From an uncultured Coxiellaceae bacterium (GTDB lineage: Bacteria > Myxococcota_A > Polyangia > Polyangiales > Houyiibacteriaceae): 59,217 bases of DNA. The position numbers were made by a program, and so were the translations under genes. A model generated the notes under the pieces. That model was not told where the DNA came from and did no database searches. It was given only the letters and a program-made list of their open reading frames with translations. Below, piece after piece: positions 1,019 to 18,056 of the stretch (the first letter of the stretch is position 1; every line of letters begins with the position of its first letter). The stretch is taken from the NCBI GenBank assembly GCA_964194675.1, contig CAXMND010000193.1:1-59217 (forward strand). Reading direction: 5' to 3'.

Positions 1019-1059
1019 CCGCCTGTGGAGGCGACCCCCGGGAGCCGAACCTGCCGTCC

Positions 1060-2115
1060 TCACTCGTTCGGCGGGAGCCCGATGTTGAAGCCCCCCTCGC
1101 AAGGGATGTCGAACATCCGGATGCCGCCCTCGGGGTCCAGCTCCACCGGCACGTTATCCTCCGGGTACGCAGCGATCGTCAGGTCGGCATCGGTGTAGCC
1201 GAAAAGCACGCACATCTCCTCTTCGCCCTTGTTGCCCCAGTGGAGCTCGCGGTCGGTGGTGTTGTTGTAACCGCACTCGTACTTGATCTTCCCGGTACCG
1301 AGAGAGCTGATGGGGGGGTCGATCGTGTGGCCAAGGTGGTCGCCGACGTTGTCGAGCTCTAGAATCGTTGTCTCGCTCCCGTCGTCATGGACGAAGCTCA
1401 CCCTGAAGTAGTTGCCCCATTGGTGATAGTGGGCGAGCACATAGTGAAAGTTGAACGGTTTGGGGGCCCACTGACCGATATCGCAGGTCTGGATCATTCG
1501 GGACTGTCCCCCCGGAGGGATCACGATGTCGGTGTTCCGCAAGGTGAACAAGCGCAACTTGGTTTCAACCTCTTCTTCTTCGATCGCTTGAATCCCCATC
1601 GTAAGCGTGGTCTCGAGCTGAGACGCCGCAACGTTGAGGAGATGGGCGTTGCCAATGATCTTGCTCCGCGCGGGCACCACGAGTGCGGACCCTTCGGGGA
1701 ACGCCTGGACCTCTTCGGGGGACTGCGTCGACTGCGCGAAGATCACACCGCCCTCGATGCCCGCGGACACTTCCTCGAAACCGCGGTCCCGGCACTTCCA
1801 GAGCCCGTCTTCACCATACTGGTCGTCCGGGACGAAGAACCAGTTGGAGTGGTGCCAGCCGCCATCGTTGAATTGGCGGACCTTGGTGACGTAGAGCGGC
1901 TTGTCATTGTCGAGTGTCCAGCTCTGGCACCAATAGGCGTCCGCACCCGGGTCCACGACGACCGGGTCGAAGGTGTGCTCCAAAGTCGCGACGAAAGCCG
2001 ACGAGTCATCGCCCCCGGTCCCCGCCGAGCCATCACCCCCGGTCCCCGCCGAGCTCGAGCTCCCACAACCGACGACGACCAAAGCCGCCGCCACCAATAA
2101 ACCTATCGTGCGCAT
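1060..2115 (-). CDS. Lipoprotein with copper type II (PHM/DBH-like) monooxygenase domain, copy 1
   Basis: Lipobox VVGC and Gly/Ser linker. WHHSNW, GNAHLLN, AHYHQW and EEEMC match the spacing of PHM CuH (HH...H) and CuM (HxH...M) ligands. Confidence 0.7.
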   Translation of the reverse strand: MRTIGLLVAAALVVVGCGSSSSAGTGGDGSAGTGGDDSSAFVATLEHTFDPVVVDPGADAYWCQSWTLDNDKPLYVTKVRQFNDGGWHHSNWFFVPDDQYGEDGLWKCRDRGFEEVSAGIEGGVIFAQSTQSPEEVQAFPEGSALVVPARSKIIGNAHLLNVAASQLETTLTMGIQAIEEEEVETKLRLFTLRNTDIVIPPGGQSRMIQTCDIGQWAPKPFNFHYVLAHYHQWGNYFRVSFVHDDGSETTILELDNVGDHLGHTIDPPISSLGTGKIKYECGYNNTTDRELHWGNKGEEEMCVLFGYTDADLTIAAYPEDNVPVELDPEGGIRMFDIPCEGGFNIGLPPNE

Positions 2116-2186
2116 ATCGGCCGCAGAATCCCGCAGGAATCGATTCGCGGCAAGCCGAATCTCAGCGGCACTGGCAGGGCCAGAAG

Positions 2187-2238
2187 CAGTGCCAGCGTCG
2201 GTGCCAGCGCCAGTGTCAGTGCCAGTGTCAGTGCCACC
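2187..2238 (+). repeat. Intergenic degenerate hexamer repeat (GYGYCA)n
   Basis: cagtgccagcgtcggtgccagcgccagtgtcagtgccagtgtcagtgccacc, lying between the two paralogues. Confidence 0.85.
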
Positions 2239-2250
2239 GCCCCAGCGTCT

Positions 2251-3309
2251 CTAAAACCCGATCTGCAGGCCGCCTTCACAAGGTGGGTCGAACAGCATCA
2301 TGCCGCCCTCGGTCTCGCCTGTGAGCTCCGGGACGTTGCCCTCTGGGAACACGCCGATCTTTTTATCCGCATCGACGTAGGCAAGGAATTGGCACATTTC
2401 CTCCTCGCCGTTGTTGCCCCAGTGGAGCTCGCGGTCGGTGGTGTTGTTGTAACCACACTCGTACTTGAGGCGCCCCGCTCCTTGCGAGTTGAGAGGAGGG
2501 TCGATCGTGACGCCAAGCGCGTCGCCCGCGGTATTCTCGAGCTCGACGATCGGGCTCTCGTTGCCGTCGTCGTCGACGAAACTCAACTTGAAGTAGTCGC
2601 CCCACTGATGGAAGTGACCGAGCACGTAGTAGATGTTGTACGATTCGCCGACATGCTCGCTGATATCACAGGTCTGTGTCCAGCGTGACCGTCGCTGCGG
2701 GGGGATGGCGATCGCGTAATTGGCGAAGCTCACTTCGCGCAACTTGACCTCGACCTCTTCTTCTTCGAGCGACTGTAGGCCCATCGTCAGCGAGCTTTCG
2801 ATCGGGCCGGCAGCAACGTTGAGCAGGTGGACATTCCCGATGATCTTGCTGTGCGGTGGCACGACGACAGCCGTACCCTCCGGGAACGCTTGGACCTCTT
2901 CGAAGGTCTGGGTCGACTGAGCGAAGATCACACCGCCGTATATCGCCGCTGCCACCTCGTCGAAATCGCGGTCACGACACTTCCACGTCCCGTCTTCGCC
3001 GAACTGTTCCTCGGGAACGAAGAACCAGTTGGAGTGGTGCCAACCGCCATTGTTGACCTGCCGCACCTTGTTGACGTAGAGCGTTTCATCGTTCCCGATC
3101 GTCCAGCTCTGGCACCAATACTCTTCGGCCCCGGACTCGACCGGGATGGGATCGAAGGCGTGCTCCAAAGTCGCGACGAAAGGCGATGTGTCGCCGCCGC
3201 TCCCGCCCGAGCCATCACCCCCGGCCCCCGCCGTGCCGGCGCCCGAGCTCGTGTCCCCACAACCAGCGACGACCAAAGCCGCCGCGACCAATAAGACTAT
3301 TCTATGCAT
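2251..3309 (-). CDS. Lipoprotein with copper type II (PHM/DBH-like) monooxygenase domain, copy 2
   Basis: Tandem paralogue of 1060-2115. Start chosen at MHRIVLLVAAALVVAGC (lipobox). Same WHHSNW, GNVHLLN, GHFHQW and EEEMC motifs. Confidence 0.7.
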   Translation of the reverse strand: MHRIVLLVAAALVVAGCGDTSSGAGTAGAGGDGSGGSGGDTSPFVATLEHAFDPIPVESGAEEYWCQSWTIGNDETLYVNKVRQVNNGGWHHSNWFFVPEEQFGEDGTWKCRDRDFDEVAAAIYGGVIFAQSTQTFEEVQAFPEGTAVVVPPHSKIIGNVHLLNVAAGPIESSLTMGLQSLEEEEVEVKLREVSFANYAIAIPPQRRSRWTQTCDISEHVGESYNIYYVLGHFHQWGDYFKLSFVDDDGNESPIVELENTAGDALGVTIDPPLNSQGAGRLKYECGYNNTTDRELHWGNNGEEEMCQFLAYVDADKKIGVFPEGNVPELTGETEGGMMLFDPPCEGGLQIGF

Positions 3310-3436
3310 ATGGGCGGGCAGGGTTTGCCGTATGCTGGTCCGTGTCAAACCGAAGGTTAGCCAGGGCAAATCAGTAGTCATTTCAATAATTTATCGCAGC
3401 GTTGGGCTCCGGATCGCGTCCCGGTCCACGACCCAC

Positions 3437-3453
3437 TGTGAGTAAAGCTCACA
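3437..3453. promoter_or_regulatory. Candidate palindromic regulator site TGTGAG-taaag-CTCACA
   Basis: Perfect 6-bp inverted repeat upstream of the copper monooxygenase pair. CRP-like half-sites but with an N7 spacer. Confidence 0.35.
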
Positions 3454-3458
3454 TTAGA

Positions 3459-3515
3459 GCTGGCGCTTTCACTGACGCTGACACTGGCGCTGTCGCCGTC
3501 GCTGACGCTGACCCC
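3459..3515 (-). repeat. Intergenic hexamer repeat block (TGRCRC on + strand)
   Basis: gctggcgctttcactgacgctgacactggcgctgtcgccgtcgctgacgctgacc, in reverse orientation to the 2187 block. Confidence 0.8.
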
Positions 3516-3519
3516 GGGG

Positions 3520-3745
3520 CTATTCCTCTGCCTGCTTGCGCAGGACCTCCAGCTCCTTGGACGAAGAACCTTCCGGCAACTGCATAGGCTCGGGGGATTC
3601 CCCGGCAGGGTCCGCCGTGTGCTCCGGGACGACCGCCCCTACGTCCGGGGCCGAGGAAGGCGCCTCACCCTCCACTTCTTCCTTCGGTGCAGCGGGCTGA
3701 CAAGCCAACGGCGAGAGCGACGAGACCGAGCAGCAAACGATTCAT
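3520..3745 (-). pseudogene. Small acidic lipoprotein with a one-base frameshift at the lipobox (or a sequencing error)
   Basis: ATG at 3745 reads MNRLLLGLVALAVG. One extra base separates it from CQPAAPKEEVEG... in the 3520-3708 frame; the span is 226 nt (3n+1). Confidence 0.6.
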
Positions 3746-3783
3746 GGCGCGACTACCAAGGGAAGTCAGGAGGCGGTCAACCT

Positions 3784-3878
3784 GGTGCTGACACTGGCGC
3801 TGGCCCCGGCGCTGTCGGCTGGCGCGGACACCGGCGCTGTCGCTGGCACCGACCCTGTCGCTGGCGCTGGCGCTACTG
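3784..3878 (-). repeat. Intergenic hexamer repeat block (TGRCRC on + strand)
   Basis: ggtgctgacactggcgctggccccggcgctgtcggctggcgcggacaccggcgctgtcgctggcaccgaccctgtcgctggcgctggcgct. Confidence 0.8.
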
Positions 3879-3916
3879 GAGGACCGCGTGGATTCGCTGT
3901 GGTAGGGAGAACTAGT

Positions 3917-4972
3917 GTGTTCCGGAAGTCGACTGACCTCGCGTTCGCGCTTCTAGTTTTGTGCCTGGTGGTCTCCGTGGCTGCCGAGGCCACAGTTGGG
4001 CCCCTCGGACCGGCACCGCGTGACGTGGACGGCCGCTTCGAGAATCTGATCGGCGAGCTTTCGCACGGCAGCTTGGCTGTCCGCTTTCCCTTCTTCTTGA
4101 GACGGATCGCCGGTTCCTTCCGCGACCGCCCGGGCGCACCCGAACGAATCGCCAACGACGGCGCGTTGCTCCGAGAGAACGCCGAACACAGCACGCCCAC
4201 GGTGACCTGGATCGGCCATTCGACGATGCTCGTACAGATGGATAGCGTCACTTTTCTCACCGACCCGATCTGGTCGGACACGCCAAGTCCTGTTTCTTTC
4301 GCAGGGCCACGACGCTTCGTCCCTCCTGGGGTGGCGATGCAGGACTTGCCGCCGATCGACTTCGTCGTGGTCTCCCACAATCACTACGACCATCTCGATC
4401 TTCCGACACTGGTCGCCTTGGCTGAGCGAAACCCGGAAACGCGCTTCTTTGTCCCTCTCGAGAACGGCGAGCTGCTCCGCGACAACGGGATCGACAACGT
4501 GGATGAGCTCGACTGGGGCGGCTCGATCGAATACGCGAGCGTACGCGTGCACTGTCTTCCTGCCCAACACTGGAGCAGGCGGGGGTTGGGCGACTATCGA
4601 AAGGCACTCTGGTCGTCGTGGGCGGTCGTCGGACCGGAGCGACGCTTTTTCTTCGCGGGCGACACGGGCTACTTTGACGGTTTCGCGACGATTGCGGAGG
4701 CGTTGGGGCCCTTCGACCTCGCGGCACTGCCGATCGGCGCGTACGAGCCGCTGGCGATGATGAATAAATCGCACATGAATCCGGAGGAGGCGGTCCAAGC
4801 CGCAATCGACCTGAGGACCCAAAACGCGGTGGCGATGCACTACGGCACCTTCGATCTCTCCGACGAGCCACTCGAAGATCCGCCGCGGCGCTTCCGCAAG
4901 GCGACGGAGGCGAGCCCCCTCGGCAAGAACAGAGGCTGGCTACTCCGCATCGGCGAGACCCGCAAGTTCTAA
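3917..4972 (+). CDS. MBL-fold metallo-hydrolase, NAPE-PLD/RomA-like, exported
   Basis: TWIGHST, TDPIWS, SHNHYDHLD, PAQHWSRR, FAGDTGY, PIGAYEP and MHYGTFDL motifs. GTG start follows AGGGAG; N-terminal hydrophobic signal. Confidence 0.9.
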   Translation: MFRKSTDLAFALLVLCLVVSVAAEATVGPLGPAPRDVDGRFENLIGELSHGSLAVRFPFFLRRIAGSFRDRPGAPERIANDGALLRENAEHSTPTVTWIGHSTMLVQMDSVTFLTDPIWSDTPSPVSFAGPRRFVPPGVAMQDLPPIDFVVVSHNHYDHLDLPTLVALAERNPETRFFVPLENGELLRDNGIDNVDELDWGGSIEYASVRVHCLPAQHWSRRGLGDYRKALWSSWAVVGPERRFFFAGDTGYFDGFATIAEALGPFDLAALPIGAYEPLAMMNKSHMNPEEAVQAAIDLRTQNAVAMHYGTFDLSDEPLEDPPRRFRKATEASPLGKNRGWLLRIGETRKF

Positions 4973-4994
4973 TTGCTGGCCGGTAGGAACGCGT

Positions 4995-6077
4995 CTACCC
5001 CTTCGCATATTCGGAAACGAATGCGGCGATCTTCTCCAGTGCTTCGTTTGCTTCCGGCAATGTGTCGGCAAATGCATGCCAGACATGGAGCATCCCCGGC
5101 CAAGTCTGGAGCCGTGCATCCGAGCCCTGACCTCGAGCCTTGTTGACCCAACGACGCCCATCATCCGCCAGCATCTCCGAGTCACTCACCTGCACGAGCG
5201 TCGGAGGTAGTCGCGATAGATCCCCGAAGATCGGCGAGATCAGTGGGTTTGTTGGGCGCATGCGCGCGGCAAACACCGTAAACAACAAAATGAGTGTGCG
5301 AGGAAGATTCGCTAGTTTGCCGAACGTCGGGCCCAACATCAGGTCAGTGTCGACGTTGTTGCGCATGCTGGGTGACGAGCTCGTACCATCGGAGGGCGGC
5401 GACAGCGCGACTGCGGCATCGACCTGCCTGAGGCCCTCGTCTCGAATCCAGGCGATCAACATCAAGGTAAGATTGCCACCCGCCGAATCACCGGCAACGA
5501 AGAGCTCGCCTGGCGCACCGGGTCCTTCGGGCCCGTTATCGAGGATCCAGCGGTACGCACTTTGGCAATCGAGTATCCCAGCGATCCGGGGATTCTCGGG
5601 CATCAAGCGATAGTCGATCGCCAGTACAGCCACGCCCGCCAGTTTGCTGAGGCGCGCGGTAATAGGGCGATGACTTCGAGGGCTTCCGGCGGCGAACGCC
5701 CCTCCGTGCAAGTACAGAAGTCGTCGAGACGCGTCGGCATTGGGCGCGATCACCCACTCCGCGGGTATGCCCCCGGCATCGGCGTCACTGATCGCAACGC
5801 CAAGCCCGTCGGCAGACATCGCAGCACCTGGGATTCCACGATCGAGCACTTCGCGCATCTGCGCGACCCTTCCGCGAAAGGAAGTTGAATTCACCCCCTT
5901 CTGCATTTGCCGAAGTAGTCGCCTCGCTTCTTCGTTCTCTCGGCTGACTCGATCGAGCGAGGTACCGCGTTCCCCGGCCGGAGAATCGTACTGAGATAGA
6001 TCGGGGCCGCGCAGGAGTAGGCCGATAGCAAACCAAAGGACTACGAGACCGCCGATGATCGAAACGAGGATTTCCAT
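4995..6077 (-). CDS. Alpha/beta hydrolase, HSL-family esterase/lipase with N-terminal membrane anchor
   Basis: YLHGGAF, DYRLMPE, GDSAGG nucleophile motif and catalytic His in MLHVW. Confidence 0.9.
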   Translation of the reverse strand: MEILVSIIGGLVVLWFAIGLLLRGPDLSQYDSPAGERGTSLDRVSRENEEARRLLRQMQKGVNSTSFRGRVAQMREVLDRGIPGAAMSADGLGVAISDADAGGIPAEWVIAPNADASRRLLYLHGGAFAAGSPRSHRPITARLSKLAGVAVLAIDYRLMPENPRIAGILDCQSAYRWILDNGPEGPGAPGELFVAGDSAGGNLTLMLIAWIRDEGLRQVDAAVALSPPSDGTSSSPSMRNNVDTDLMLGPTFGKLANLPRTLILLFTVFAARMRPTNPLISPIFGDLSRLPPTLVQVSDSEMLADDGRRWVNKARGQGSDARLQTWPGMLHVWHAFADTLPEANEALEKIAAFVSEYAKG

Positions 6078-6163
6078 TTGAGATTACCAGTTGGAGTACC
6101 GTGCGGTGCTCGAAGCGTCCACCCAATCGCCGAATGGCTCAAACGCGACTCCAAGGTACGCTG

Positions 6164-6769
6164 TTATGAAAGCCCTATCCCCGACTGAAGCAGCTGGGTT
6201 GCCGCGAGGGCGAGCTTTCTTGCGTCCTCTGACGACAGTGATGCCACGCGCGGGTGGCCATCGACGATCATTCTCGCGAGGCCGTGGGTGAGGGCTTCGC
6301 TGGTCAGCGCGATCAGTTCCGGATCGGCTTCCGGGATGAGGCCGGCGTTCTGGCCCTCGTAGATGAGCGCGATCAACTTCAGGCGGCGCTCATCTTTGAG
6401 GTCGCCCAGAAATCGGCCTCCGACCGACCCGTGACTGTGGATCAAATCGAAAAGGGTCGGATGCTCGGCTGCGAATCGTACGTACGCGACGGTCATCGCG
6501 CGGAACTGGGTGAGTGCGTCGGCGCACTGTGCTGTCGCCTCATCGAGCTTTCGGTCGAGCTCGGCGACAGCCCGCTCGGCCACGGTGTCGAGTAGAACCT
6601 GCTTGTCTGAGAAGTGCCGGAAGGGCGCTGCAGACGAAACACCCGCCTCCCGCGCAAGCGCCCGCATGCTGACGGCGTCGGGGCCTTGGGAATCGACCAG
6701 GCGAAAAGCAGCCTCGACGAGCACCTCGCGGAGATTTCCGTGGTGATAGGCTTTGCGTGCCGCGGTCAC
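6164..6769 (-). CDS. TetR/AcrR family transcriptional regulator
   Basis: YHHGNLREVLVEAA...SMRALAREAGVSSAAPFRHF helix-turn-helix. Confidence 0.92.
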   Translation of the reverse strand: MTAARKAYHHGNLREVLVEAAFRLVDSQGPDAVSMRALAREAGVSSAAPFRHFSDKQVLLDTVAERAVAELDRKLDEATAQCADALTQFRAMTVAYVRFAAEHPTLFDLIHSHGSVGGRFLGDLKDERRLKLIALIYEGQNAGLIPEADPELIALTSEALTHGLARMIVDGHPRVASLSSEDARKLALAATQLLQSGIGLS

Positions 6770-6789: not shown

Positions 6790-6873
6790 ATGTTACCGCT
6801 GCTTACTTTCCTTGGACATCCAATGTTAGCGGCGCTTACATCTGCTACCTAAATATGTTATCAACGCTTACAT
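6790..6873. promoter_or_regulatory. Three 19-bp semi-palindromic operators, consensus ATGTTANC-N3-GCTTACAT
   Basis: ATGTTACCGCTGCTTACTT (6790), ATGTTAGCGGCGCTTACAT (6823) and ATGTTATCAACGCTTACAT (6855), directly upstream of the TetR gene. Confidence 0.8.
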
Positions 6874-7383: not shown

Positions 7384-8253
7384 ATGGGGAGTAAGCGGGT
7401 CTGGTCGATCCTCGGGAACTCACAACGTCTCGATGGCGGTGCGATGTTTGGCAACGTTCCGCGCGCGATGTGGGCACAGTGGATCGAGCCAGATGAGCGA
7501 AACCGGATCCCGTTGGCCTGCCGCGCGATGCTCGTCGAAGAGGGGGACCGGCTCATCTTGTTCGAAACGGGCATCGGCGCTTTCTTCCCCCCGCAGCTAC
7601 GTGATCGCTACGGAGTACAGGAAGAGCGCCACGTCTTGCTGGAGAGCCTCGAGGCCGCTGGGTTTTCGCACGGCGACGTCGATGTGGTCGTCCTGTCCCA
7701 TCTTCACTTCGACCATGCAGGGGGGCTCCTGAGCCGATACCAGCCCGAAGAGCCGATGCACCTTCTGTTTCCGAGGGCCACCTACATCGTGAGCTGGGAT
7801 GCTTGGCAGCGCGCTCGGCATCCGCACCTCCGCGGTCGCCGTTCGTTCATCCCCGAGCTTCCGGCCCTGCTCGAAGAGAGCGGACGACTCGAAGTGGTGA
7901 AGGGAAATAGGTCCGACGTGTTGGGGGGCGCGTACAAACTGTGGCTCTCCAATGGACACACGCCGGGGTTGATGTTGACGGAGCTCCCGAGCGATGACGG
8001 CCCGGTAGTCTACGCCGCCGACCTAATCCCCGGACGCGCGTGGATGCACCTGCCGATCACCATGGGATACGACCGTTACCCGGAGCAGTTGGTCGACGAG
8101 AAATCCGAGCTCCTCGGGCGGCTGGTCGAACAACGAGGCCGGATCTTCTTCACCCACGACCACGAGATCGCCCTCGGACGCGTTGCGAAAGACGCAAAAG
8201 GCCGCTTTTTCGTGCAGGAAAGCTGGGCGGAGCTGCAGGGCGCGCCTCTTTGA
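7384..8253 (+). CDS. MBL-fold metallo-hydrolase, YtnP-like
   Basis: [33 protein letters not shown] and FTHD motifs. Confidence 0.9.
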
Positions 8254-8288: not shown

Positions 8289-9776
8289 ATGCCACGCGGA
8301 AATGGCGAGACCCCAGCGCGAATCGTAAGCGGGGAAGACTACATCAACAGCCTACGGGGCCGGAGCCTCAAGGTGTTCCTGTTCGGTGAGCTGGTCGACG
8401 AACCGGTGGACCATCCCCTGATTCGACCGTCGATCAACGCCGTTGCGGAGACTTACGACTTGGCAGTCCGCGAGCCGGAAGTTGCAACCGTCGAGTCCAC
8501 GCTCATCGACGGGCGCGTCAACCGCTTTCTACACATCGTGCAGAGCCCAGAAGACCTGGTCGCGCAAAACATGATGCAGCGCAAGCTCGGACAGAACACG
8601 GGCACTTGCTTTCAGCGCTGCGTCGGAATGGACGCGTTCAACTCGCTCTACTCGGTAACCTACGAGATCGACGAGAAACACGGCACGCCTTACCATGAGC
8701 GTCTCAAGGCGTTCTTGACGACGATGCAGCGGCATAACTACGTGGTCGGCGGGGCCATGACCGACGTCAAAGGTGATCGTAGCAAGGCTCCGCACGAGCA
8801 AGACGACCCTGACCTCTTCGTCCATATCACCAAGCGCAACGACGACGGCATCTGGCTGCGCGGCGCCAAAGCGCACCAAACCGGTTGCATCAACTCGCAT
8901 TGGATCATCGCCATGCCGACGATGCGCCTGGGGCCGAAGGACAAAGACTACTCGGTAGTGGCAGCCTTCCCGGTCGACGCACCCGGGATCACCTACATCT
9001 ACGGGAGACAGTCCTGCGATACGCGAAGCATGGAGGGCGGCTCGATCGATGTTGGGAACGCGTCGTTCTCGGGACAAGAAGCGATGGTAATCCTCGAGGA
9101 CGTGTTCGTCCCGTGGAGCCACGTCTTCATGGATGGCGAGTACGAGTTTGCATCGATGCTCGTCGAGCGCTTCACCTGTTATCACCGCCGGAGCTACGTC
9201 TGCAAGACCGGCGTCGGCGACGTATTGATCGGAGCCGCAGCTCAAGCTGCCGAGCACAACGGGGTCGAAAAGGCTTCGCATATCAAAGACAAACTCGTGC
9301 AAATGACACATTTGAACGAGACGATGTACGCTGCTGGCATTGCCTCGTCACATCAGGCGAAGCCCACTAAATCCGGCTGCTACTTGAACGACGACATGCT
9401 TGCCAATGTGTGCAAGCACCACGTAACGAAGATGCCGTTCGAGATCGGGCGGCTTGCCCAAGACCTAGCGGGCGGGCTGGTGAGCACTGCACCTTCTGAG
9501 AAAGAGCTCAAGCACCCCGAGCTCAAGGCGTTGCTCGAAAAGTACCTTAAAGGACGGGCGGACGTGCCCACCGAGGCGCGGATTCGCGTGCTCCGCTTGA
9601 TCGAGAACATGACGATGGGTCGCAACGCGGTGGGGTATCTGACCGAGTCGATGCATGGCGCCGGGTCTCCGCAGGCACAGCGTATTCAGATCGGACGCCT
9701 GATGAACCTCGAGTTCAAAAAGGGGCTCGCACGCAAGCTGGCTGGTATCGAGGGTCGCGACCAGGACGAAGAGTAG
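8289..9776 (+). CDS. abfD: 4-hydroxybutyryl-CoA dehydratase / vinylacetyl-CoA isomerase family (FAD, 4Fe-4S)
   Basis: TCFQRCVGMD (CxxxC) plus YHRRSYVC (H-x5-C) cluster ligands; GAMTDVKGDRS and ESMHGAGSPQAQ. Confidence 0.8.
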   Translation: MPRGNGETPARIVSGEDYINSLRGRSLKVFLFGELVDEPVDHPLIRPSINAVAETYDLAVREPEVATVESTLIDGRVNRFLHIVQSPEDLVAQNMMQRKLGQNTGTCFQRCVGMDAFNSLYSVTYEIDEKHGTPYHERLKAFLTTMQRHNYVVGGAMTDVKGDRSKAPHEQDDPDLFVHITKRNDDGIWLRGAKAHQTGCINSHWIIAMPTMRLGPKDKDYSVVAAFPVDAPGITYIYGRQSCDTRSMEGGSIDVGNASFSGQEAMVILEDVFVPWSHVFMDGEYEFASMLVERFTCYHRRSYVCKTGVGDVLIGAAAQAAEHNGVEKASHIKDKLVQMTHLNETMYAAGIASSHQAKPTKSGCYLNDDMLANVCKHHVTKMPFEIGRLAQDLAGGLVSTAPSEKELKHPELKALLEKYLKGRADVPTEARIRVLRLIENMTMGRNAVGYLTESMHGAGSPQAQRIQIGRLMNLEFKKGLARKLAGIEGRDQDEE

Positions 9777-9800: not shown

Positions 9801-10934
9801 GTGGTGTCGATGCCAGTGAGGGGCCACACCGAGTTTGTCGTCATCTGGGCGTGTCTGGCGATGTTCGGTTGCGAACGGGACGCCACGGCGGAGGCCCATG
9901 GCAAACCAATCGGAGCCCTCGAGACCGGTCGGGTCGCCGATCCTGTCACCAAAAACGAAGAGCCTGCCGAGCCGGTGCGGGGAGGGCTGGTCATCGGAGA
10001 GTACCGGCTCGCGCCTCGTGCCGTAGTCGACGGAGACACGATTCGTGTGGAGAATCTCAAAAACTCCATTCGTCTACTCTCGATCGATACCGAGGAGAAG
10101 GTACGCGGTAAACGGGACCGGGCTGCGATCGAGGCAGACTTCGAAAAGTATTTGAAAAGGAGGCGTGGCGATGCCGTGCGTCCAAAGAAAGCCGGTACGC
10201 CGATGGGCAGCCGAGCCACCGAGTTCGCGGAAGAGTTCTTCGGCGGCGTCGAAACCGTGCGACTCGAACGAGACGACCCCAAAGCTCTTCGTGGGCGGTA
10301 CGGCCGGCTTCTCGCGTACGCGTTCGTGAAGAAAGACGGCAAGTGGACCAGCTACAATGTCGAGGCTGTCCGCGCAGGGATGAGCCCCTATTTCACGAAG
10401 TACGGATACTCTCATCGTTTTCACAACCAGTTCGCGCGCGCGGAGGGCGAGGCGCTGCGCGCTCGACGCGGCATCTGGGACCCGGACGCCAAGGGCTACG
10501 GCGATTATGCCGAGCGTAAGGAGTGGTGGGACGCGCGGGCCAACTTCATCCAAGCGTTCGAGCACCAGGCAGCCGGGCGCGACGATTTCATCATGCTCAC
10601 CGAGTGGGATGCAAACGCGCGGCTCGAAGAAAAGCTGGGCAACGAAGTGACCGTCCTTGGGACGGTCGGTAGGGTGCAGCATTTCAAGAGACTGGTGCGC
10701 GTGCTGCTGGGCGGCGAGCAAGGCAAGGACTTTCCGATCATTTTTTTCGATAAAGAGGCTTTTCGACGAAGCGGCCTCGAGCGTTACGCGGGCGAACCTG
10801 TGACGGTACGGGGTCCGATCGAACGCTACAAACGCGGCGACTATGCGACGCTTCAGATCGTGGTCGGTGACCCCGAACAGATCGGCCTTCCCTCGCTCCC
10901 GTGGCCGGATGAACCCGCTCGGGCGGCCGAGTAG
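9801..10934 (+). CDS. Thermonuclease (SNase-like) lipoprotein with C-terminal OB-fold-like domain
   Basis: Lipobox MFGC; VVDGDTIRV, IRLLSIDTEE, RYGRLLAY and ARRGIW. C-terminal VTVLGTV...VTVRGPIERYK...LQIVVGDPEQI. Confidence 0.85.
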   Translation: MVSMPVRGHTEFVVIWACLAMFGCERDATAEAHGKPIGALETGRVADPVTKNEEPAEPVRGGLVIGEYRLAPRAVVDGDTIRVENLKNSIRLLSIDTEEKVRGKRDRAAIEADFEKYLKRRRGDAVRPKKAGTPMGSRATEFAEEFFGGVETVRLERDDPKALRGRYGRLLAYAFVKKDGKWTSYNVEAVRAGMSPYFTKYGYSHRFHNQFARAEGEALRARRGIWDPDAKGYGDYAERKEWWDARANFIQAFEHQAAGRDDFIMLTEWDANARLEEKLGNEVTVLGTVGRVQHFKRLVRVLLGGEQGKDFPIIFFDKEAFRRSGLERYAGEPVTVRGPIERYKRGDYATLQIVVGDPEQIGLPSLPWPDEPARAAE

Positions 10935-10994
10935 CACGAAACCAAACGACGCTTCGACCGATAACCCGCCAAGCCCGAGAGGCAGGAGGTCGAG

Positions 10995-12623
10995 ATGGCG
11001 GGAGTGTGCGGTTGGGTGCGCGGGTGCGTATGCCTGGTGTTGGTGGTCTGCGGTTGCGGGAGGGATCCAGTCGCGGCGCAAGCGAGGTGCGAAGAAGTCT
11101 TGCCCGGCGACGTCGTCATTACGGAGATTCACGCGAACCCAGATGGAAACGATGGCGACGACGAGTACATCGAGCTCTTCAATGCGAGTGGACGGGCGCT
11201 CGAGCTCCAGGGCTTGACGCTGGTTTCGAGCCGCGAAGACGGGACGGGGGCGTCGGAGCATCGATTTGGCGAAAGCCTAGTCGACGCGGACGACTACTTC
11301 GTGTTGGGAAGCGCGACATCCGAGTCGTGGTCTGCGCATGTCGACTACAGCTACGGCAATACGCTGGGCAGGCTTCGCAACTCCGACGCTGCGCTGTTGA
11401 TCCGATGTAGCGAGGCGGTCATCGACCGGGTGAGCTACACGAGCACGCGAGACGGGCGCGCCCTAGAGCTCGACGGCCGGCTCGTCCCAGACAGCGAGTT
11501 GAACGACGACGCAGGTCACTGGTGCTTTGCGCCAGAAACAGCGTCCGAGGTCTCCCCACACAACTTTGGCACCCCGGGCGCCCGAAACAGCGTTTGCGAA
11601 GAGCCACCAGTCGATGGGACTTGCGGCGAGGGTGGGGCGAGGCGCGCCATCGATCGACCGGCGTCCGGCGAAGTTCAGATCACCGAATGGATGGCCAATC
11701 CGGATGGGCCGGACGGCGAGCTCGAGTGGCTAGAATTGCTCTTTACCGAACAGGCCGATCTCAACGGCATTCGGCTCGGTGCACAGAGTGACTCGCTTGG
11801 CACACCTGTCCTCGGGGATGCGTGTTTCCCCGTCGACGCGGACACACGGGTTGTCTTCGGAGCGAGTCCGGCGGCAGCCTCCCGCGTCGACGCGGATCTC
11901 GGTTTCAGCCTCGGCAATTCTGGAGAGCGCAGCATCGTGGTCGTAATCGAGGATACCGTCCTCGACCGCGTCGAGTACCTGGGTTCGGAAGAAGGTGTCG
12001 CGTGGCAGGTGGACGCCGACGGAGTGCTGTGCCTGGTCGAGGCCGTGACGGACTACGAGTACCGCGATGCCAACTTCGGGACGCCGGGTGAGTCGAACCC
12101 AGTGTGTCCCCCCGTTCTCGAAGAGGGGATGTGCTTCGATGGGAGCACCCCGCGGTTGATTCGGAGCCCGTCCGCGGCACAGACGCAGATCACGGAGTGG
12201 TTGGCGAACCCTTCGATGGTTGGCAACCGGGACGGCGAGTGGGTCGAAGTTCATTTCACGGCCGGCGCCGACCTCAATGGCCTAGTGTGGTCCGACCTCA
12301 CCGGGGCGAGCACGAGTATCGAACGAGACGAGTGCGTGTCGGTACCAGCCGGAGCGTTCGCGGTGTTCGCACGAAACTCGAACGGTGACGCAAACGGAGG
12401 CGTGCCGTTCGTAGACGCCGAGCTCGGCGTCTCGCTCAACAACACCAACGAAATGATCTCGATCAGCATCGACGGTCAGGTCCTGGATTCGGTTTCGTAC
12501 AAAGGGTCGCATCCGGGAATCGCGACGCAGATCGACGAATCAGGCCTCCGGTGTGACGCGATCACGCCGTATGGCGATGGAGACCTGGGGACACCCGGTG
12601 CGCCAAACCGATCGTGCCCCTGA
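10995..12623 (+). CDS. Lipoprotein with three lamin-tail (LTD) domains
   Basis: Lipobox VCGC. Three repeats begin ITE(I/W)xANP..E(Y/W)xE and end GTPG..N, with Cys-containing linkers. Confidence 0.82.
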   Translation: MAGVCGWVRGCVCLVLVVCGCGRDPVAAQARCEEVLPGDVVITEIHANPDGNDGDDEYIELFNASGRALELQGLTLVSSREDGTGASEHRFGESLVDADDYFVLGSATSESWSAHVDYSYGNTLGRLRNSDAALLIRCSEAVIDRVSYTSTRDGRALELDGRLVPDSELNDDAGHWCFAPETASEVSPHNFGTPGARNSVCEEPPVDGTCGEGGARRAIDRPASGEVQITEWMANPDGPDGELEWLELLFTEQADLNGIRLGAQSDSLGTPVLGDACFPVDADTRVVFGASPAAASRVDADLGFSLGNSGERSIVVVIEDTVLDRVEYLGSEEGVAWQVDADGVLCLVEAVTDYEYRDANFGTPGESNPVCPPVLEEGMCFDGSTPRLIRSPSAAQTQITEWLANPSMVGNRDGEWVEVHFTAGADLNGLVWSDLTGASTSIERDECVSVPAGAFAVFARNSNGDANGGVPFVDAELGVSLNNTNEMISISIDGQVLDSVSYKGSHPGIATQIDESGLRCDAITPYGDGDLGTPGAPNRSCP

Positions 12624-14695
12624 GGCCCGCGCAGTACGTCGCTTTGGTGTTCGCATGGCTCGTCGCGTGGTTTCCGAGGGATACCGGCGCCGTTCAATAC
12701 GAGGTGTTCGTGCATGTCGAGGCCGAGGAAGACCTATACCACTTGCTGGTGTCCGGGCAGATCTCGGAGCGTTCGTTCGGCGCGCTTCTGCTCCTCTACC
12801 AAACGAAAGTCGACCTCAACCGGGCAGATCGGGAACGGCTCTACGCCTTGCCAAACCTCAACCTCGCGCACGTGGATCGAATTCTCCACTATCGAAATGA
12901 GGTCAAAAGCATCGGTGCGTTCGACGATCTCGTGGCGGCTGGGGCGCTCGATGCCGACCTGGCTGACACGATTCGCGCTTTCGTCGTCGTGCGTTCTCCC
13001 GAAACACCTAAAACCGAAACCGATGGGTTCCTGCGGGTGCAAGCGCGCTGGAGCGGGCCTTACGACAGGCTTCCACCGGCGGCGGCGATTCAGGCACGGG
13101 TCAAGACCCTCCGTAACCTCGACGTCGGAGCTGTCGGAGTGCTCACCCGCAACGATGTTCACCGGGTGCGCTGGGACCTAGGTCGCCAAGCGCTCACCGC
13201 AGAACCAGAGCGGGTCCGATTCGTGGTCCCCAAGCTCTACGCAGAATGGCAAGATGAGAAGTGGGAAGTCGTCGTAGGGACTTTTCGCATCGGCTTCGGT
13301 CAACGGTTGACCTTCGATGTGACCGACCAGGTCAGCCCGAATGGTTTCTTTGGCGACTACGAGCTTCGGAGAACAAACGACCTCGCCCTACGATGCAGGC
13401 GGAGAGCGGGGGAGCTGATCGAATCTCCGTGCTCGACCGATCGGGTCCCGCGGGTCACGCCCGACTACAAATGGACGAACCGCCTGGCAGGCGCTGCGGT
13501 CGGCCTACGCAAAGCGGATGTGGGACGCGGCTGGTTGCAGGCTTACGGGTGGGGTTCCTACCAAGTACACCGAGTCCCACGAATCGAGGTGGCAAACGCA
13601 GGCAGCTGCGTAGACCCCCGACTGGACGAGGATCCCGCTTGCAAGGCCCCGCCCGTATACGTACGGGGCGCCGACCCCGCGAAGCCGACGAGCGAGCTCA
13701 GCTCCGTCACCCTACCCGCCATGGTCGTCGAGGGTCTCGGCGGAGCGAACATCGGCTACTTTTGGAGTTCCCGAGCGCACGTGGGAATGACCGGATACGG
13801 GTCGGTTCCGAAATGGCTCGTCAATGGTGTCGAGCTTGGCTTCCAAGAATTCGCGCGAAGGCCGTTTGGTGGTCCGTTCGGTGCACTTGGGATAAACGCG
13901 GCGTACGGGTTCGGCGTACAAGACTTCTTTATCGAGCTCGCGCGTAGCTTCGACTCGCAGCCGGGGGGCGGAGGCGGCTATGGCGCGATCCTGCGGAGCG
14001 TCACCGTGCTTCAAACGACCGAGTTCGACACCTCGGTTCGCTACTACGGCGAGGACTACGCGAACCCATATGCGAGGCCGGTGTCTGCACCCGACGAGCT
14101 CGATGGGCTTCGAGCGCGCAACGAAACTGGTGTCCGCATGAGAACGACCAGCAGCTTCGGGCGGAAGCTGGGCTTACGGACCGTGGCCGACGTCTGGCGC
14201 AGGCTGTCCGAACGTGGGATCGAAGCGGCGCTCTTTGCGCGCATGGACGTGGGCATGCGCGGACCATGGAGCTGGTCGTTCTGGGCATCCTACCGAAGCA
14301 GCAACGGTCAGGGTCTCGTCACCGCGACACGGTTTGCCTACGAGCCGAGCAGGCGGCTGACGATCTCTGCGCAATACCAACACAAATGGGTGGAGCTCGT
14401 CGCGGGGCACGGGCCTCGACAAGACATCGCGACGCTGCTTCAGATCATCTCGCGGCCGATCGACCGACTCCGCATCCGGGCTCGTGTGCGATACGATTTC
14501 GAGGACATCGCCAACAACCATCGGCTCGCGCAAGTGCTGTGGAACTACCTGGAGGCCGCAGTCACGATTCGCCAGCGCGACACACTGCGAACACGATACG
14601 ACTTTCGCGTATTCCTCGATCGGCGTGAATCCACCGTGGCGCGCCTTCCGAACCCCGAGCATTGGCTTTGGTTGGAGTACGTATTTCGGTTTTAG
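12614..14695 (+). CDS. ComEA-type helix-hairpin-helix domain fused to a probable outer-membrane beta-barrel
   Basis: Signal peptide; VDLNRADRERLYALPNL...ILHYR HhH motif; amphipathic beta-strand pattern; terminal WLEYVFRF (C-terminal Phe). Overlaps the upstream stop. Confidence 0.75.
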   Translation: MPLRPAQYVALVFAWLVAWFPRDTGAVQYEVFVHVEAEEDLYHLLVSGQISERSFGALLLLYQTKVDLNRADRERLYALPNLNLAHVDRILHYRNEVKSIGAFDDLVAAGALDADLADTIRAFVVVRSPETPKTETDGFLRVQARWSGPYDRLPPAAAIQARVKTLRNLDVGAVGVLTRNDVHRVRWDLGRQALTAEPERVRFVVPKLYAEWQDEKWEVVVGTFRIGFGQRLTFDVTDQVSPNGFFGDYELRRTNDLALRCRRRAGELIESPCSTDRVPRVTPDYKWTNRLAGAAVGLRKADVGRGWLQAYGWGSYQVHRVPRIEVANAGSCVDPRLDEDPACKAPPVYVRGADPAKPTSELSSVTLPAMVVEGLGGANIGYFWSSRAHVGMTGYGSVPKWLVNGVELGFQEFARRPFGGPFGALGINAAYGFGVQDFFIELARSFDSQPGGGGGYGAILRSVTVLQTTEFDTSVRYYGEDYANPYARPVSAPDELDGLRARNETGVRMRTTSSFGRKLGLRTVADVWRRLSERGIEAALFARMDVGMRGPWSWSFWASYRSSNGQGLVTATRFAYEPSRRLTISAQYQHKWVELVAGHGPRQDIATLLQIISRPIDRLRIRARVRYDFEDIANNHRLAQVLWNYLEAAVTIRQRDTLRTRYDFRVFLDRRESTVARLPNPEHWLWLEYVFRF

Positions 14696-14730
14696 GGCTC
14701 GGCACGAGCACGTGGTACGCTCTGCGGTCC

Positions 14731-15996
14731 ATGATTGACGAGCAAGCGATCGTCGACGAAGCAGGGGACCAATCGTTCCCCGCAAGCGATCCACCGAGCT
14801 GGACTTTGGGTCGCCGGTCATCGGCGCCCATCCGAGTGGGGCACCCGGAGTGGGAACCAATGACCGCGTACGTGGCGGAAATGTCGTACTTCAGTGGCAA
14901 GATGGAAGCGTATCTTCGGTACAAGGAGATCCCATTCGAGCGCCGCGTAGTCGGCATGAAGGTGATGCGCGACGAAGTGCTCGCGGCTACCGGCTTGATG
15001 AAGGTCCCGGTCATCCGAATGGCCAACGGGCAGTGGCTCAAGGACACGACGCCGATGATCGAATGGTTGGATTCGCAATATCCGGATCCACCGGTGATCC
15101 CAAAAAACTCGGCCCTTCGTTTCTTGTCGAAGTTAGTCGAAGACTATGCCGACGAATGGTGTTGGCGTGCTGCGCTCTATTGGCGGTGGCGGCCGACCGA
15201 GTCGCGAAAGCTCCTCATGTCACGAATCGGCAGTGAAGTGTTGGGTGACTTCCCCGCGCCGAATTGGTTGGCCGGCTGGTACTTCGGCCGACGCCAGATC
15301 GCGACGTATCTCACGGGCGACGGCATGACCGCCGAGACCGCGCCACACATCAAGCAGCACTACCTCGACCTCCTCGACAACATGAGCGCCATCCTGGAGA
15401 ACCAGCCGTTTCTGTTGGGCAGCCACCCGACACTGGTCGATATCGGCCTCTTCGGACCGATGTTCCGCCACTACGCGGAAGATCCGACGCCGAGCCGCGT
15501 GATGCAGGAACGCGCGCCCGCCGTGTCCGCATGGGTTGGGCGAGTTTGGAACGCGCGCGCAAGCCAACTTCCCGCGGAGCGGACGCTATCCGATTTTTCA
15601 CATCGTGGTTGGGAGTACTTCCTGAAAGAGATTGTGCAGACCTATTGGCCGTTTCTTCTGCGTTCAGCGGAGGCCTGGAAGGCTGGCAACAAGCGAGTCG
15701 ACCACCACGCCCACGGCGTCACCTACAAGGGGCTCAGGGTGGTGCACTACCGCGTGTATTGCCTCGAGGTGCTTCAACACGAGTACGAGACGCTCTCACC
15801 CTCCGACCGCAAGGCCGTCGATGACGCGCTTGCACCCTACGGAAGGCTCGAGTTGATGCCTGGGCTTCGCTCGGGTCTCATGAAGGAGCACGAGCTCCCG
15901 CTTCCCTCGACTCGTCCGCAGCCGTCGACGCTTCAGCGGCTCGTCCTCGGGTTGACCGGCACGCCTTGGGACATGCCGAGGACTCCCGAAGAGTAA
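14731..15996 (+). CDS. Glutathione S-transferase-like protein with N-terminal SFPASDPP extension
   Basis: SYFSGKMEAYLRYK, KVPVI, DTTPMIEWLD, EDYADEW and PFLLGSHPTLVDIGL motifs. Confidence 0.8.
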   Translation: MIDEQAIVDEAGDQSFPASDPPSWTLGRRSSAPIRVGHPEWEPMTAYVAEMSYFSGKMEAYLRYKEIPFERRVVGMKVMRDEVLAATGLMKVPVIRMANGQWLKDTTPMIEWLDSQYPDPPVIPKNSALRFLSKLVEDYADEWCWRAALYWRWRPTESRKLLMSRIGSEVLGDFPAPNWLAGWYFGRRQIATYLTGDGMTAETAPHIKQHYLDLLDNMSAILENQPFLLGSHPTLVDIGLFGPMFRHYAEDPTPSRVMQERAPAVSAWVGRVWNARASQLPAERTLSDFSHRGWEYFLKEIVQTYWPFLLRSAEAWKAGNKRVDHHAHGVTYKGLRVVHYRVYCLEVLQHEYETLSPSDRKAVDDALAPYGRLELMPGLRSGLMKEHELPLPSTRPQPSTLQRLVLGLTGTPWDMPRTPEE

Positions 15997-17141: not shown

Positions 17142-18056
17142 ATGACACGCAAAGCAACTTTGTTTGGAGCGGCGATCCTGGCTGCATTCGCATCGGCATG
17201 CGCAGAAGACGGCGCCGCGGCCGGCGGAGCCGGAGGAGCCGGAGGAGAGGGAGGCGCGACCGGTATGGCAGAGCTATCGCTGGCTTTCACCGATCTTCCC
17301 GAGCTTGGATCGGACTTCGTGTACGAGGGTTGGCTGATTACGGGCGACGGACCCGTCTCGACGGGACGGTTCACCGTGGACGGCGACGGCGCACTGAGCG
17401 AATCACTCTTCGCAGTGGATCCGACGGACGCCGACGCTGCCAGTACCTTTGTACTAACGATCGAGCCAGCCACGGGAGACGACCCGGCACCAAGCGAAAC
17501 ACACATCCTCGCAGGCGATCTCACCGAGAATTCCGCCGACCTGAGCATGGCACACCCAGCGGCGTTGAGGGACGACTTCACGGCCGCTGCTGGGGAATAC
17601 ATCCTTGCGGCCCCCACAGGTGGCGAAGGCACACCGTTCCAATACGGGATCTGGTGGTTGGTCCCTGGTGACCCACGTTCAGCTGGCCTCGCGTTGCCGA
17701 CACTCCCGGCCGGCTGGGCGTACGAGGGTTGGGTCGCGAGCGCAGATGCGGTGTCCACCGGCCGATTCACCGATTTCGGCAACGCAGACTCCGACGGCGC
17801 GGGCCCCGATGCCGGGTCAGAAACCAGTGCAGCGCCGCCGTTCCCGGGGCAAGATTTCGTCGATCCTCCGCGAGATCTCACCGCTGAGTACACCGCGGTG
17901 ATCAGTGTGGAGCCGGATCCTGATGACGGCTCCGGCCCCTTCTTCATCAAACCGCTGGTTCATCCGATCGCTTCGATCGAGCCGCCCACCACGCAGGTCA
18001 TGGACAACAACGCCGCCGCTACTTCACCAAGCGGCACCGCCAGCATCACCCCTTAG
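17142..18056 (+). CDS. Secreted lipoprotein with duplicated YEGW domain (RskA/anti-sigma-like annotation family)
   Basis: Lipobox ASAC and Gly linker. Two repeats: LPELGSDFVYEGWL..VSTGRFT and LPTLPAGWAYEGWV..VSTGRFT. Confidence 0.65.
   Translation: MTRKATLFGAAILAAFASACAEDGAAAGGAGGAGGEGGATGMAELSLAFTDLPELGSDFVYEGWLITGDGPVSTGRFTVDGDGALSESLFAVDPTDADAASTFVLTIEPATGDDPAPSETHILAGDLTENSADLSMAHPAALRDDFTAAAGEYILAAPTGGEGTPFQYGIWWLVPGDPRSAGLALPTLPAGWAYEGWVASADAVSTGRFTDFGNADSDGAGPDAGSETSAAPPFPGQDFVDPPRDLTAEYTAVISVEPDPDDGSGPFFIKPLVHPIASIEPPTTQVMDNNAAATSPSGTASITP

Follow-up and report, generated by a model that had tools for sequence, protein, structure and literature searches.

The stretch of DNA analysed here (the window; 59,217 nucleotides, contig CAXMND010000193.1 of assembly GCA_964194675.1) comes from an uncultured bacterium placed by GTDB in the Houyiibacteriaceae (Polyangiales, Myxococcota_A), and it carries three co-oriented genes that probably form one functional module acting on nucleic acid (Table 1). 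Gene 1 encodes a predicted lipoprotein with a staphylococcal-nuclease-type domain (SNase) and an OB-like C-terminal domain, gene 2 a predicted lipoprotein of three lamin-tail domains (LTDs), and gene 3 an exported protein in which a ComEA-type helix-hairpin-helix (HhH) domain is fused to a modelled 24-strand outer-membrane (OM) beta-barrel. Genes 1 and 2 are separated by a gap of 60 bp, genes 2 and 3 overlap by 10 bp, and an AGGAGG-like ribosome-binding site lies upstream of gene 2. A preliminary description of the window had listed the three genes with exactly this spacing and had proposed a pilus-independent system that harvests DNA. What it observed is confirmed; its functional reading is weighed below.

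Gene 1 matches Pfam SNase (PF00565) over residues 90-227 at E 3.3e-10, with 40.8 bits against a cut-off of 21, and the same domain scored 43.2 bits in a six-frame search of the genome. Aligned to staphylococcal nuclease structures, it retains the stretches DGDT, R-L-L-x-x-D-T-x-E (R..DT.E) and Y-G-R, which we take to be the catalytic and Ca2+ residues of the SNase fold (Asp/Asp/Thr, Arg, Glu, Arg). It differs from staphylococcal nuclease in an insertion of roughly 25 residues within this domain, in its lipobox and in the added OB-like domain. The NCBIfam equivalogs for thermonuclease NucI and EcnA were considered and rejected (43.3 bits against 250 and 43.1 against 180); by its sequence, gene 1 is a distant member of the SNase superfamily and not an equivalog. 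The C-terminal domain (the last ~140 residues) has no Pfam match of its own. We label it OB-like because orthologous domains match OB-fold families: among 40 C-domains scanned, the window's and 39 orthologous ones, 14 match tRNA_anti-codon and nine tRNA_anti-like, with a best E of 6.9e-8. A profile of the domain found nothing meaningful in the PDB (best E 0.26), and the ESM Atlas gave leads only, below 0.9 with a family. The lipobox of the window's protein, AMFGC, is atypical in having M-F-G at -3 to -1. The Cys directly behind the hydrophobic stretch is nevertheless present, as read by eye, in each of the 33 genus orthologues whose N-terminus is intact, and gene 1 is accordingly predicted to be a lipoprotein.

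In gene 2, LTD1 matches Pfam PF00932 at E 1.9e-21 (76.9 bits against a cut-off of 34.3), LTD2 spans the full profile below the cut-off (16.3 bits, E 0.013), and LTD3 has no Pfam match. Three domains, at residues 45-170, 233-350 and 403-524, are recovered by a profile that was started from LTD1 and refined by iteration over related loci, and the three segments align on common motifs. The lipobox Cys and several other cysteines are invariant among the 45 orthologues aligned, so that gene 2, too, reads as a lipoprotein.

The N-terminal part of gene 3 scores 25.5 bits with HHH_3 (PF12836) in hmmscan, against a cut-off of 27, and 30.3 bits in the six-frame search; the family is carried by 34 of 120 gene 3 homologues among the matches listed. 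When the profile of the barrel family is compared with the PDB, it finds the HhH domain of EEPD1 (9yi2, E 8.8e-17), ComEA (8dss at E 3.9e-12, 8dfk and 2duy) and also Tex. On these profile matches, the N-terminal domain is homologous to the ComEA-type DNA-binding domain. The 550 residues that follow have no match in Pfam or NCBIfam, and by sequence the barrel alone finds only the EEPD1 HhH domain in the PDB, at E 0.0027.

A first structural model of gene 3, built on an alignment of 22 close homologues, reached a pLDDT of 59.9 with weak Foldseek matches and was replaced. The AlphaFold 2 (AF2) model from a diverse alignment of 78 sequences has a pLDDT of 92.1 and a pTM of 0.88, and consists of a signal helix, a helical domain (residues 38-123) and 24 long strands (residues 137-692). 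Foldseek returns 363 matches in the PDB at E <= 0.001, led by FimD (E 4.2e-12, TM 0.41), with MtrB, PapC, LptD and TonB-dependent transporters among the further leading matches. VIA-align 2, run over 48,161 chains, finds OM barrels only, at Z 10-17 and with no family outstanding. From the model, the fold class of gene 3 as a large OM barrel is certain, and the family is none known; closure of the barrel is suggested by its structural matches to OM barrels. The features of an OM beta-barrel protein are present: a signal peptide, an even number of strands and an aromatic C-terminal residue. The sequence ends in ...YVFRF; of 78 family members, 57 end in F and five in Y. Both the barrel and the barrel-type terminal Phe had been predicted in the preliminary description.

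Two more specific assignments were examined and rejected. Gene 3 is not a TonB-dependent transporter: neither Pfam nor NCBIfam gives a Plug or TonB_dep_Rec match, its N-terminal domain is a helical HhH in place of a plug with TonB box, and its barrel has 24 strands where 22 would be expected; such transporters resemble it only as generic barrels (Z 10-14). It is likewise not a chaperone-usher pore, with no usher Pfam match and a likeness limited to the barrel at TM 0.41. The family itself has 469 clusters at 50% identity and E <= 0.001, of which 167 have E <= 1e-30. In the ESM Atlas it is represented by Myxococcota clusters with HHH_3 and by one 681-aa 'HhH domain-containing' cluster labelled Bacteroidota, a label for which the phylum is known for two members only.

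The connections between strands alternate in length, the even ones having 2-5 residues and the odd ones up to 63. Since an even strand number and a short/long alternation correspond to the standard topology of OM barrels, the N-terminal domain would lie in the periplasm. The long conserved odd loops are L3 (228-290, 63 residues), L4 (323-365, 43 residues) and L7 (479-503, 25 residues). Mean conservation is 0.47 in the external loops, 0.47 in the strands and 0.28 in the turns, with L7 highest at 0.63. External loops conserved like the strands are unusual for a porin and suggest a conserved partner or a fold within the pore. Conserved Cys pairs occur in L3 (C261/C273) and L4 (C332/C343). Separately, in alignment A2, most members from outside the genus carry two conserved cysteines in an insertion that lies between residues ~560 and 600 of the window's protein (consensus ...G...C..........G....C.G...), and this insertion is missing from the protein of the window.

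Each of 24 other genomes of the genus carries the trio, at identities of 44-63% for gene 1, 41-60% for gene 2 and 53-65% for gene 3, and as far as the contigs extend the order is always SNase, LTD, barrel. In five of these genomes a contig ends within the module, which is still consistent with this order, and in one (G008) it occurs in a two-LTD version with 1.1 kb of extra DNA. We searched the whole assembly of the window (3.54 Mb, 238 contigs, 95.6% complete) and found one Pfam LTD match and one Pfam SNase match, which are adjacent to each other and beside the barrel gene. Because the sole LTD match and the sole SNase match of the assembly adjoin, and because the order is kept in the genus, the grouping of the three genes is not due to chance.

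To follow the module through the phylum, 301 Myxococcota genomes were searched with a profile of the barrel family. Matches at E <= 1e-10 were found in 123 genomes; about 77 of these are of barrel length (best E <= 1e-60), and the remainder cover the HhH part only. We examined 61 loci, namely the window, 57 near-full-length matches outside the genus and three inside it, and scanned them with in-house profiles and profile-seeded open reading frames (ORFs). Other in-genus matches and the fragmentary or split ones (G255, G286, G078, G294, G309, G070, G105, G067 and G266) were omitted. In 55 of the 61 loci a gene of two to six LTD repeats adjoins the barrel gene. In two of the six loci lacking such a neighbour (L050 and L055) the barrel lies at the edge of its contig; the other four are discussed below. 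The number of LTD domain matches per genome ranges from 1 to 61 among the matches listed (50 genomes), and even where LTD genes are common the probability of a chance adjacency is negligible. The arrangement depends on the clade, with the LTD gene upstream of, downstream of or divergent from the barrel gene, so the pairing of LTD and barrel has survived rearrangement. Co-occurrence in other genomes and a barrel-like model of the 693-aa protein were the two computable points on which the preliminary description could have failed, and both came out in its favour.

A second sample, of 80 loci named by GTDB, gave a similar picture. An LTD gene is adjacent in 74, and the six misses have no more than 208 bp of upstream flank; where both flanks reach 4 kb or more (44 loci), an LTD gene is present in all 44 and an SNase gene in 42. 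The carriers in this sample are metagenome-assembled genomes named as Myxococcales, Polyangiales, Sandaracinaceae, Kofleriaceae, Nannocystaceae and Haliangiales and, in addition, the cultured Plesiocystis pacifica SIR-1 (L168) and Enhygromyxa salina SWB005 (L170). Lipobox-like signals were found in 77 of 124 LTD-repeat ORFs, 40 of 68 SNase-OB ORFs, 41 of 54 small SNase ORFs and 10 of 14 PLD-type ORFs, compared with 2 of 97 barrels, which served as the control.

While the barrel and the LTD chain stay together, the nuclease beside them changes. SNase genes occur at 32 of the 61 loci and phospholipase-D-type (PLD-type) genes at 18, with at least one of the two at 47. The sister clades have two SNases, one being the SNase-OB protein and the other an SNase lipoprotein of 165-190 aa encoded between the LTD gene and the barrel; all four of the small SNase genes tested match Pfam SNase, at E 2.4e-10 to 1.4e-19. 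At 18 loci, a lipoprotein of 165-200 aa directly upstream of the barrel takes the place of the SNase of gene 1. It matches Pfam PLDc_2 in six of six cluster members tested (E 1e-27 to 1e-33) and has the architecture of the single-HKD, Nuc-type nucleases. A third type is an exported metallo-beta-lactamase-like (MBL-like) protein of 435-490 aa, whose gene follows the LTD gene at nine of the 61 loci (L075, L082, L083, L084, L085, L051, L052, L062 and L067), five of them lacking SNase and PLD. Its N-terminal metallo-beta-lactamase match is weak, with two of three proteins tested over the cut-off; the protein is a candidate nuclease. Three LTD-containing loci have no SNase, PLD or MBL-like gene, and two of these end at a contig edge. 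When 392 unannotated neighbour proteins were clustered, only the PLD and MBL-like genes proved widely recurrent.

The module thus has a core, the barrel with its LTD chain, and a variable part, a nuclease of one fold or another. Since unrelated nuclease folds swap around a constant core, the common substrate should be nucleic acid. This exchange is the strongest argument for a nucleic-acid substrate, and it is independent of the HhH domain. One genome (G292) has three separate paralogous modules (L053, L059 and L074), each with its own LTD gene and nuclease. One of the three has a PLD-type nuclease and the order barrel-LTD, and the other two have a small SNase and the order LTD-barrel-SNase. 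In the sister clades L033-L041 and L139-L172 we observed a larger module, consisting of a single-LTD ORF, an SNase-OB protein, an LTD chain, a small SNase lipoprotein and the barrel. The LTD chain of these clades has 3-8 domains, and the window's genus has no small SNase between the LTD gene and the barrel.

Table 1. Features of the module and its surroundings; positions are those of the window unless a contig is named (C85, C143)
Feature	Position	Strand	Size, basis or remark
Gene 1, SNase + OB-like lipoprotein (predicted)	9801-10934	+	377 aa; ORF list, Pfam SNase
Gene 1 signal peptide with lipobox Cys24	9801-9872	+	Cys kept in genus orthologues
SNase catalytic domain, residues 90-227	10068-10481	+	Pfam; alignment to PDB thermonuclease
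Gene 1 C-terminal OB-like domain, residues ~238-377	10512-10931	+	Pfam matches of orthologous domains
Gene 2, lipoprotein of three LTDs (predicted), lipobox Cys21	10995-12623	+	542 aa
LTD1	11127-11504	+	Pfam LTD E 1.9e-21
LTD2	11691-12044	+	Iterated profile; Pfam E 0.013
LTD3	12201-12566	+	Iterated profile
Gene 3, exported protein	12614-14695	+	693 aa; ORF list
Gene 3 signal peptide, residues 1-26	12614-12691	+	Model: helix 4-19, low confidence 20-26
ComEA-type (HhH)2 domain, residues 63-124 (helical N-domain, 38-123)	12800-12985	+	HHH_3, family profile
24-strand OM beta-barrel (modelled), residues 137-692	13022-14689	+	AF2 model, structural matches
MBL-fold protein	7384-8253	+	289 aa, no obvious signal peptide
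HpaB-family protein	8289-9776	+	495 aa; HpaB_N E 1.4e-88
GST-like protein	14662-15996	+	444 aa; TTG start; 34 bp overlap with the end of the barrel gene
Free-standing ComEA-type HHH_3 gene	C85:2575-2757	-	One of two, 71.6 and 61.7 bits
Free-standing ComEA-type HHH_3 gene	C143:10110-10292	-	One of two, 71.6 and 61.7 bits

The trio belongs to a run of six co-oriented, tightly spaced genes. The MBL-fold and HpaB-family genes upstream of it are also found at the congeneric loci L091 and L092, and neither these two nor the GST-like gene recurs at the examined loci outside the genus. Farther downstream, an ORF of 304 aa (17142-18056, + strand) has an Ala/Gly-rich, signal-like N-terminus ending in Cys and may be a lipoprotein. 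At L040, where the barrel homologue has no LTD partner, the region upstream of the barrel (251-6191, + strand) encodes two large proteins in which an ECF-sigma region (Sigma70_r2/r4) is joined to 6-7 CarboxypepD_reg repeats, an uncommon kind of fusion. Between positions 6800 and 16300 of the window, a promoter scan gave 0 promoter-like sites, and a terminator scan gave seven terminator-like sites where 7.0 are expected, which is uninformative. HHH_3 has three matches in the whole assembly, one in the barrel gene and two in the small free-standing ComEA-like genes on other contigs. As to habitat, eight sequencing runs, which come from six or more studies, share at least half of the sampled words, and most are labelled marine sediment or seawater. 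These are word matches only, two of the eight runs have no organism label and the best-matching run may be the source sample; the labels are weak evidence and compatible with a scavenging role. No RNA run is listed among the 23 runs that share sampled words.

Our full reading is that the module acts on extracellular nucleic acid and imports it through the barrel for nutrition, to which we assign a probability of about 0.5. The gain for the cell would be phosphorus, nitrogen or nucleotides from environmental or prey DNA and RNA. The SNase-OB lipoprotein, whose domains and motifs are those of a Ca2+-type nuclease, would cut DNA or RNA at the envelope. The LTD lipoprotein would be the obligate partner of the barrel and may contact it, either as an arm or lid that holds the substrate or as a plug; the three proteins may form a physical complex. 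The 24-strand barrel would then pass oligonucleotides or DNA across the OM, and DNA itself rather than its breakdown products may go through the pore, while the ComEA-like domain at the periplasmic mouth might bind and retain the incoming nucleic acid. The two lipoproteins presumably face either the surface or the periplasm. In other Myxococcota, the same core of barrel and LTD chain is accompanied by a different nuclease or candidate nuclease, namely the small SNase, the PLD/Nuc-type lipoprotein or the MBL-like protein. A complex prediction for the G008 barrel (residues 125-694) and its two-LTD lipoprotein (residues 20-371) scored 0.00, which is no verdict and speaks neither for nor against binding; the alignment of the two-LTD protein with three-LTD orthologues was imperfect.

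Several observations weigh against this reading. The Gly-hydrophobic-Gly hairpins of HhH domains make the contacts to the DNA backbone, and in the barrel family they are largely degenerate. The first hairpin, PGIG in the ComEA type, reads P-N-L-T, with N and N in the window; Gly is found in 23 of 78 members at position one and in 3 of 78 at position two. In the second hairpin one Gly is left, in 56 of 78 members, and the N-terminal domain of the window's protein has a net charge of -5. Because the hairpin glycines are mostly lost and the domain is acidic, DNA binding by it is uncertain; of the earlier claim of a ComEA-type HhH with established DNA binding, the homology is borne out and the binding is not. 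The external loops carry a net charge of -2 over 230 residues and are not basic. Gene 3 contains neither a TonB box nor a plug nor any other means of energy coupling, which would leave only passive or ratchet-driven import. The clustering of neighbour proteins revealed no nucleotidase, phosphatase or inner-membrane transporter conserved beside the module. About 40% of the LTD-repeat ORFs have no lipobox by our rule, and some of these have a signal of the signal-peptidase-I type. At four loci with full flanks (L040, L042, L046 and L072) the barrel occurs with neither an LTD gene nor a nuclease, and the family is therefore not exclusively tied to an LTD partner. Finally, the two synteny samples share overlapping, related genomes, so that their counts overstate the number of independent events.

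A precedent for such a system exists in the Bacteroidota. The ddbABCDEF locus of B. thetaiotaomicron (PNAS 2025) is described as encoding three nucleases, the TonB-dependent transporter DdbC and an adjacent DUF5689 protein, DdbD, a surface lipoprotein modelled as the DNA-binding subunit; deletion of the locus abolishes depletion of exogenous DNA, and both DdbC and DdbD have homologues in Riemerella without which natural transformation fails (PMC12478041). In Riemerella anatipestifer, RA0C_RS04915/04920 and the HhH protein RA0C_RS02645 are reported to be essential for transformation (PMC8459023). The myxobacterial module resembles these loci in that a single locus combines an OM barrel with secreted or periplasmic nucleases and with a dedicated neighbour, exported or lipid-anchored, for which DNA holding is proposed; it further shares with them the independence from a pilus, the involvement of an HhH protein and a nuclease content that varies between subtypes. 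In contrast, DdbC has a plug and depends on TonB, whereas the myxobacterial barrel lacks any match to Plug or TonB_dep_Rec and has 24 strands and a fused HhH domain; an LTD chain takes the place of the DUF5689 protein as partner, the phylum is another one and no homology was found. The module is thus best read as analogous, not homologous, to the Ddb and Riemerella loci. Accordingly, the earlier statement that no characterised system has this architecture is correct for the architecture and not for the concept, for which these pilus-independent loci are a precedent (PMC12478041, PMC8459023).

The individual parts have relatives elsewhere. The ComEA structures 8dss, 8dfk and 2duy likewise comprise an (HhH)2 domain, and the domain of gene 3 would be periplasmic as well, but ComEA is free or membrane-anchored while the gene 3 domain is fused to a barrel, acidic and mostly without the Gly-x-Gly hairpins. 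ExeM of Shewanella and Xds of Vibrio also combine LTD, OB and nuclease domains in envelope proteins that degrade extracellular DNA (PMC6085458). These are, however, single polypeptides with an EEP catalytic domain and no dedicated barrel known, whereas the module has a protein made of LTD repeats only, a nuclease of the SNase, PLD or MBL-like type and a barrel gene as constant partner. The LTD of ExeM was dispensable for DNA degradation on plates, and its role was left open there (PMC6085458). Among the structural matches of gene 3, FimD (6e14_D, 366 residues at 3.9 A) and PapC share with it the number of 24 strands. MtrB and LptD resemble it as large barrels, and both are barrels paired with lipoproteins. 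The full-text literature searched, with subscription journals outside its coverage, yielded no paper on this barrel family or on LTD-barrel pairing, and none that pairs the lamin tail domain with myxobacteria.

The same evidence can be read as export. The barrel would then be an usher-like or Slam-like translocon that moves the LTD repeats and nuclease lipoproteins to the surface or releases them, nucleic acid would be degraded outside the cell and the products would enter by other routes. We regard this as unlikely and at the same time as a serious rival. The best full-barrel matches are the ushers FimD and PapC, which pass Ig-like subunits (alignments of 366-385 residues at 3.9-5.2 A in VIA-align 2), and the partner of the barrel is always a chain of two to eight Ig-like beta-sandwich domains. 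The lack of a conserved importer or nucleotidase nearby fits export as well, and with its degenerate hairpins the N-terminal domain could dock protein instead of DNA. However, the usher likeness amounts to 'large barrel' only: identity is 8-10%, and gene 3 has neither an usher Pfam match nor the plug, chaperone-binding and other N- and C-terminal domains of ushers. Export would also leave unexplained why the barrel family retains a ComEA-type domain and why each module has one dedicated LTD partner with exchangeable nucleases. A different use of the pore would be natural transformation, with long DNA threaded without pilus or secretin, ratcheted by the ComEA-like domain and handed over to ComEC. 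The placement of that domain at the presumed periplasmic mouth agrees with this, and, judged by the pore dimensions of ushers, a 24-strand barrel belongs to a size class whose lumen could admit a DNA duplex. ComEC (Pfam Competence) is found in 35 of 40 other genomes of the genus. For Riemerella, transformation without a pilus is reported to require each of three components, namely an OM barrel, a surface protein and an HhH protein (PMC8459023), and the Ddb locus, which is DNA-catabolic, is related to that system (PMC12478041). Yet the most constant companions of the barrel are non-specific nucleases, which fit degradation better; ComEC is widespread irrespective of competence and never adjoins the module; the HhH hairpins have lost their glycines; the genome has two further ComEA-like genes, free-standing and away from the module; and the literature searched contains no report of competence for these taxa. 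ComEC was not found in the window's assembly either, which is probably an assembly gap (the assembly is 95.6% complete) and says nothing either way. We consider transformation as the function quite improbable. A broader proposal, which we hold to be doubtful, is that the barrel serves as a DNA conduit of a new type through the OM, independent of pilus, secretin and TonB and used for food and possibly transformation. Here the LTD chain would hold long DNA, the nuclease would nick or trim it, the 24-strand pore would thread it and the fused ComEA-like domain would ratchet it inward.

Two further explanations do without passage through the barrel. The LTD chain might anchor the cell to extracellular DNA in a biofilm or in sediment while the nucleases remodel the matrix, nutrition and uptake not being the point. 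LTD-bearing nucleases such as ExeM affect biofilm formation, and the role of the LTD is left open there (PMC6085458), and the runs that match this organism come mostly from marine sediment or seawater. Matrix handling, however, provides no role for a 24-strand barrel with a periplasmic domain of DNA-binding type and does not explain the coupling of barrel and LTD across the examined loci, and we think it very unlikely. Alternatively, the genes may be neighbours by descent in one operon with unrelated roles, as their position in a six-gene run with MBL-fold, HpaB-like and GST-like genes might suggest. But the flanking genes are not kept outside the genus, while barrel, LTD and nuclease are kept through three gene orders, and the single LTD and single SNase matches of the genome are adjacent; that the three genes have no common function is hardly credible. 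Taken against these rivals, the interpretation offered in the preliminary description, a pilus-independent harvesting of DNA, is partly supported: its link to nucleic acid is upheld by the nuclease exchange.

The architecture and the barrel family are new, and the kind of system has a precedent. To our knowledge, passage of DNA or its fragments across the OM without a type IV pilus is known only for the Bacteroidota, and only since 2021-2025. If our reading of nutritional import is true, the module would represent a second solution to this task, one that evolved independently in a phylum whose members are predators and inhabitants of sediments. In marine sediments, extracellular DNA is described as a major source of phosphorus, nitrogen and carbon (PMC8289736). 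The barrels of the module constitute an uncharacterised family that lacks a Pfam or NCBIfam model and has no close relative among solved structures. Moreover, the LTD, whose role in bacteria 'has not yet been elucidated' (PMC6085458), becomes amenable to testing here, as the constant companion of a pore. Three nuclease folds exchanged around an unchanging core amount to a clean natural experiment, and because two cultured marine myxobacteria carry the module, it is open to genetics. Should the barrel prove to be a DNA conduit, the Myxococcota would have a dedicated route of DNA uptake, for food and possibly for transformation, and bacterial LTDs would have a first defined role, as partners of an OM pore.

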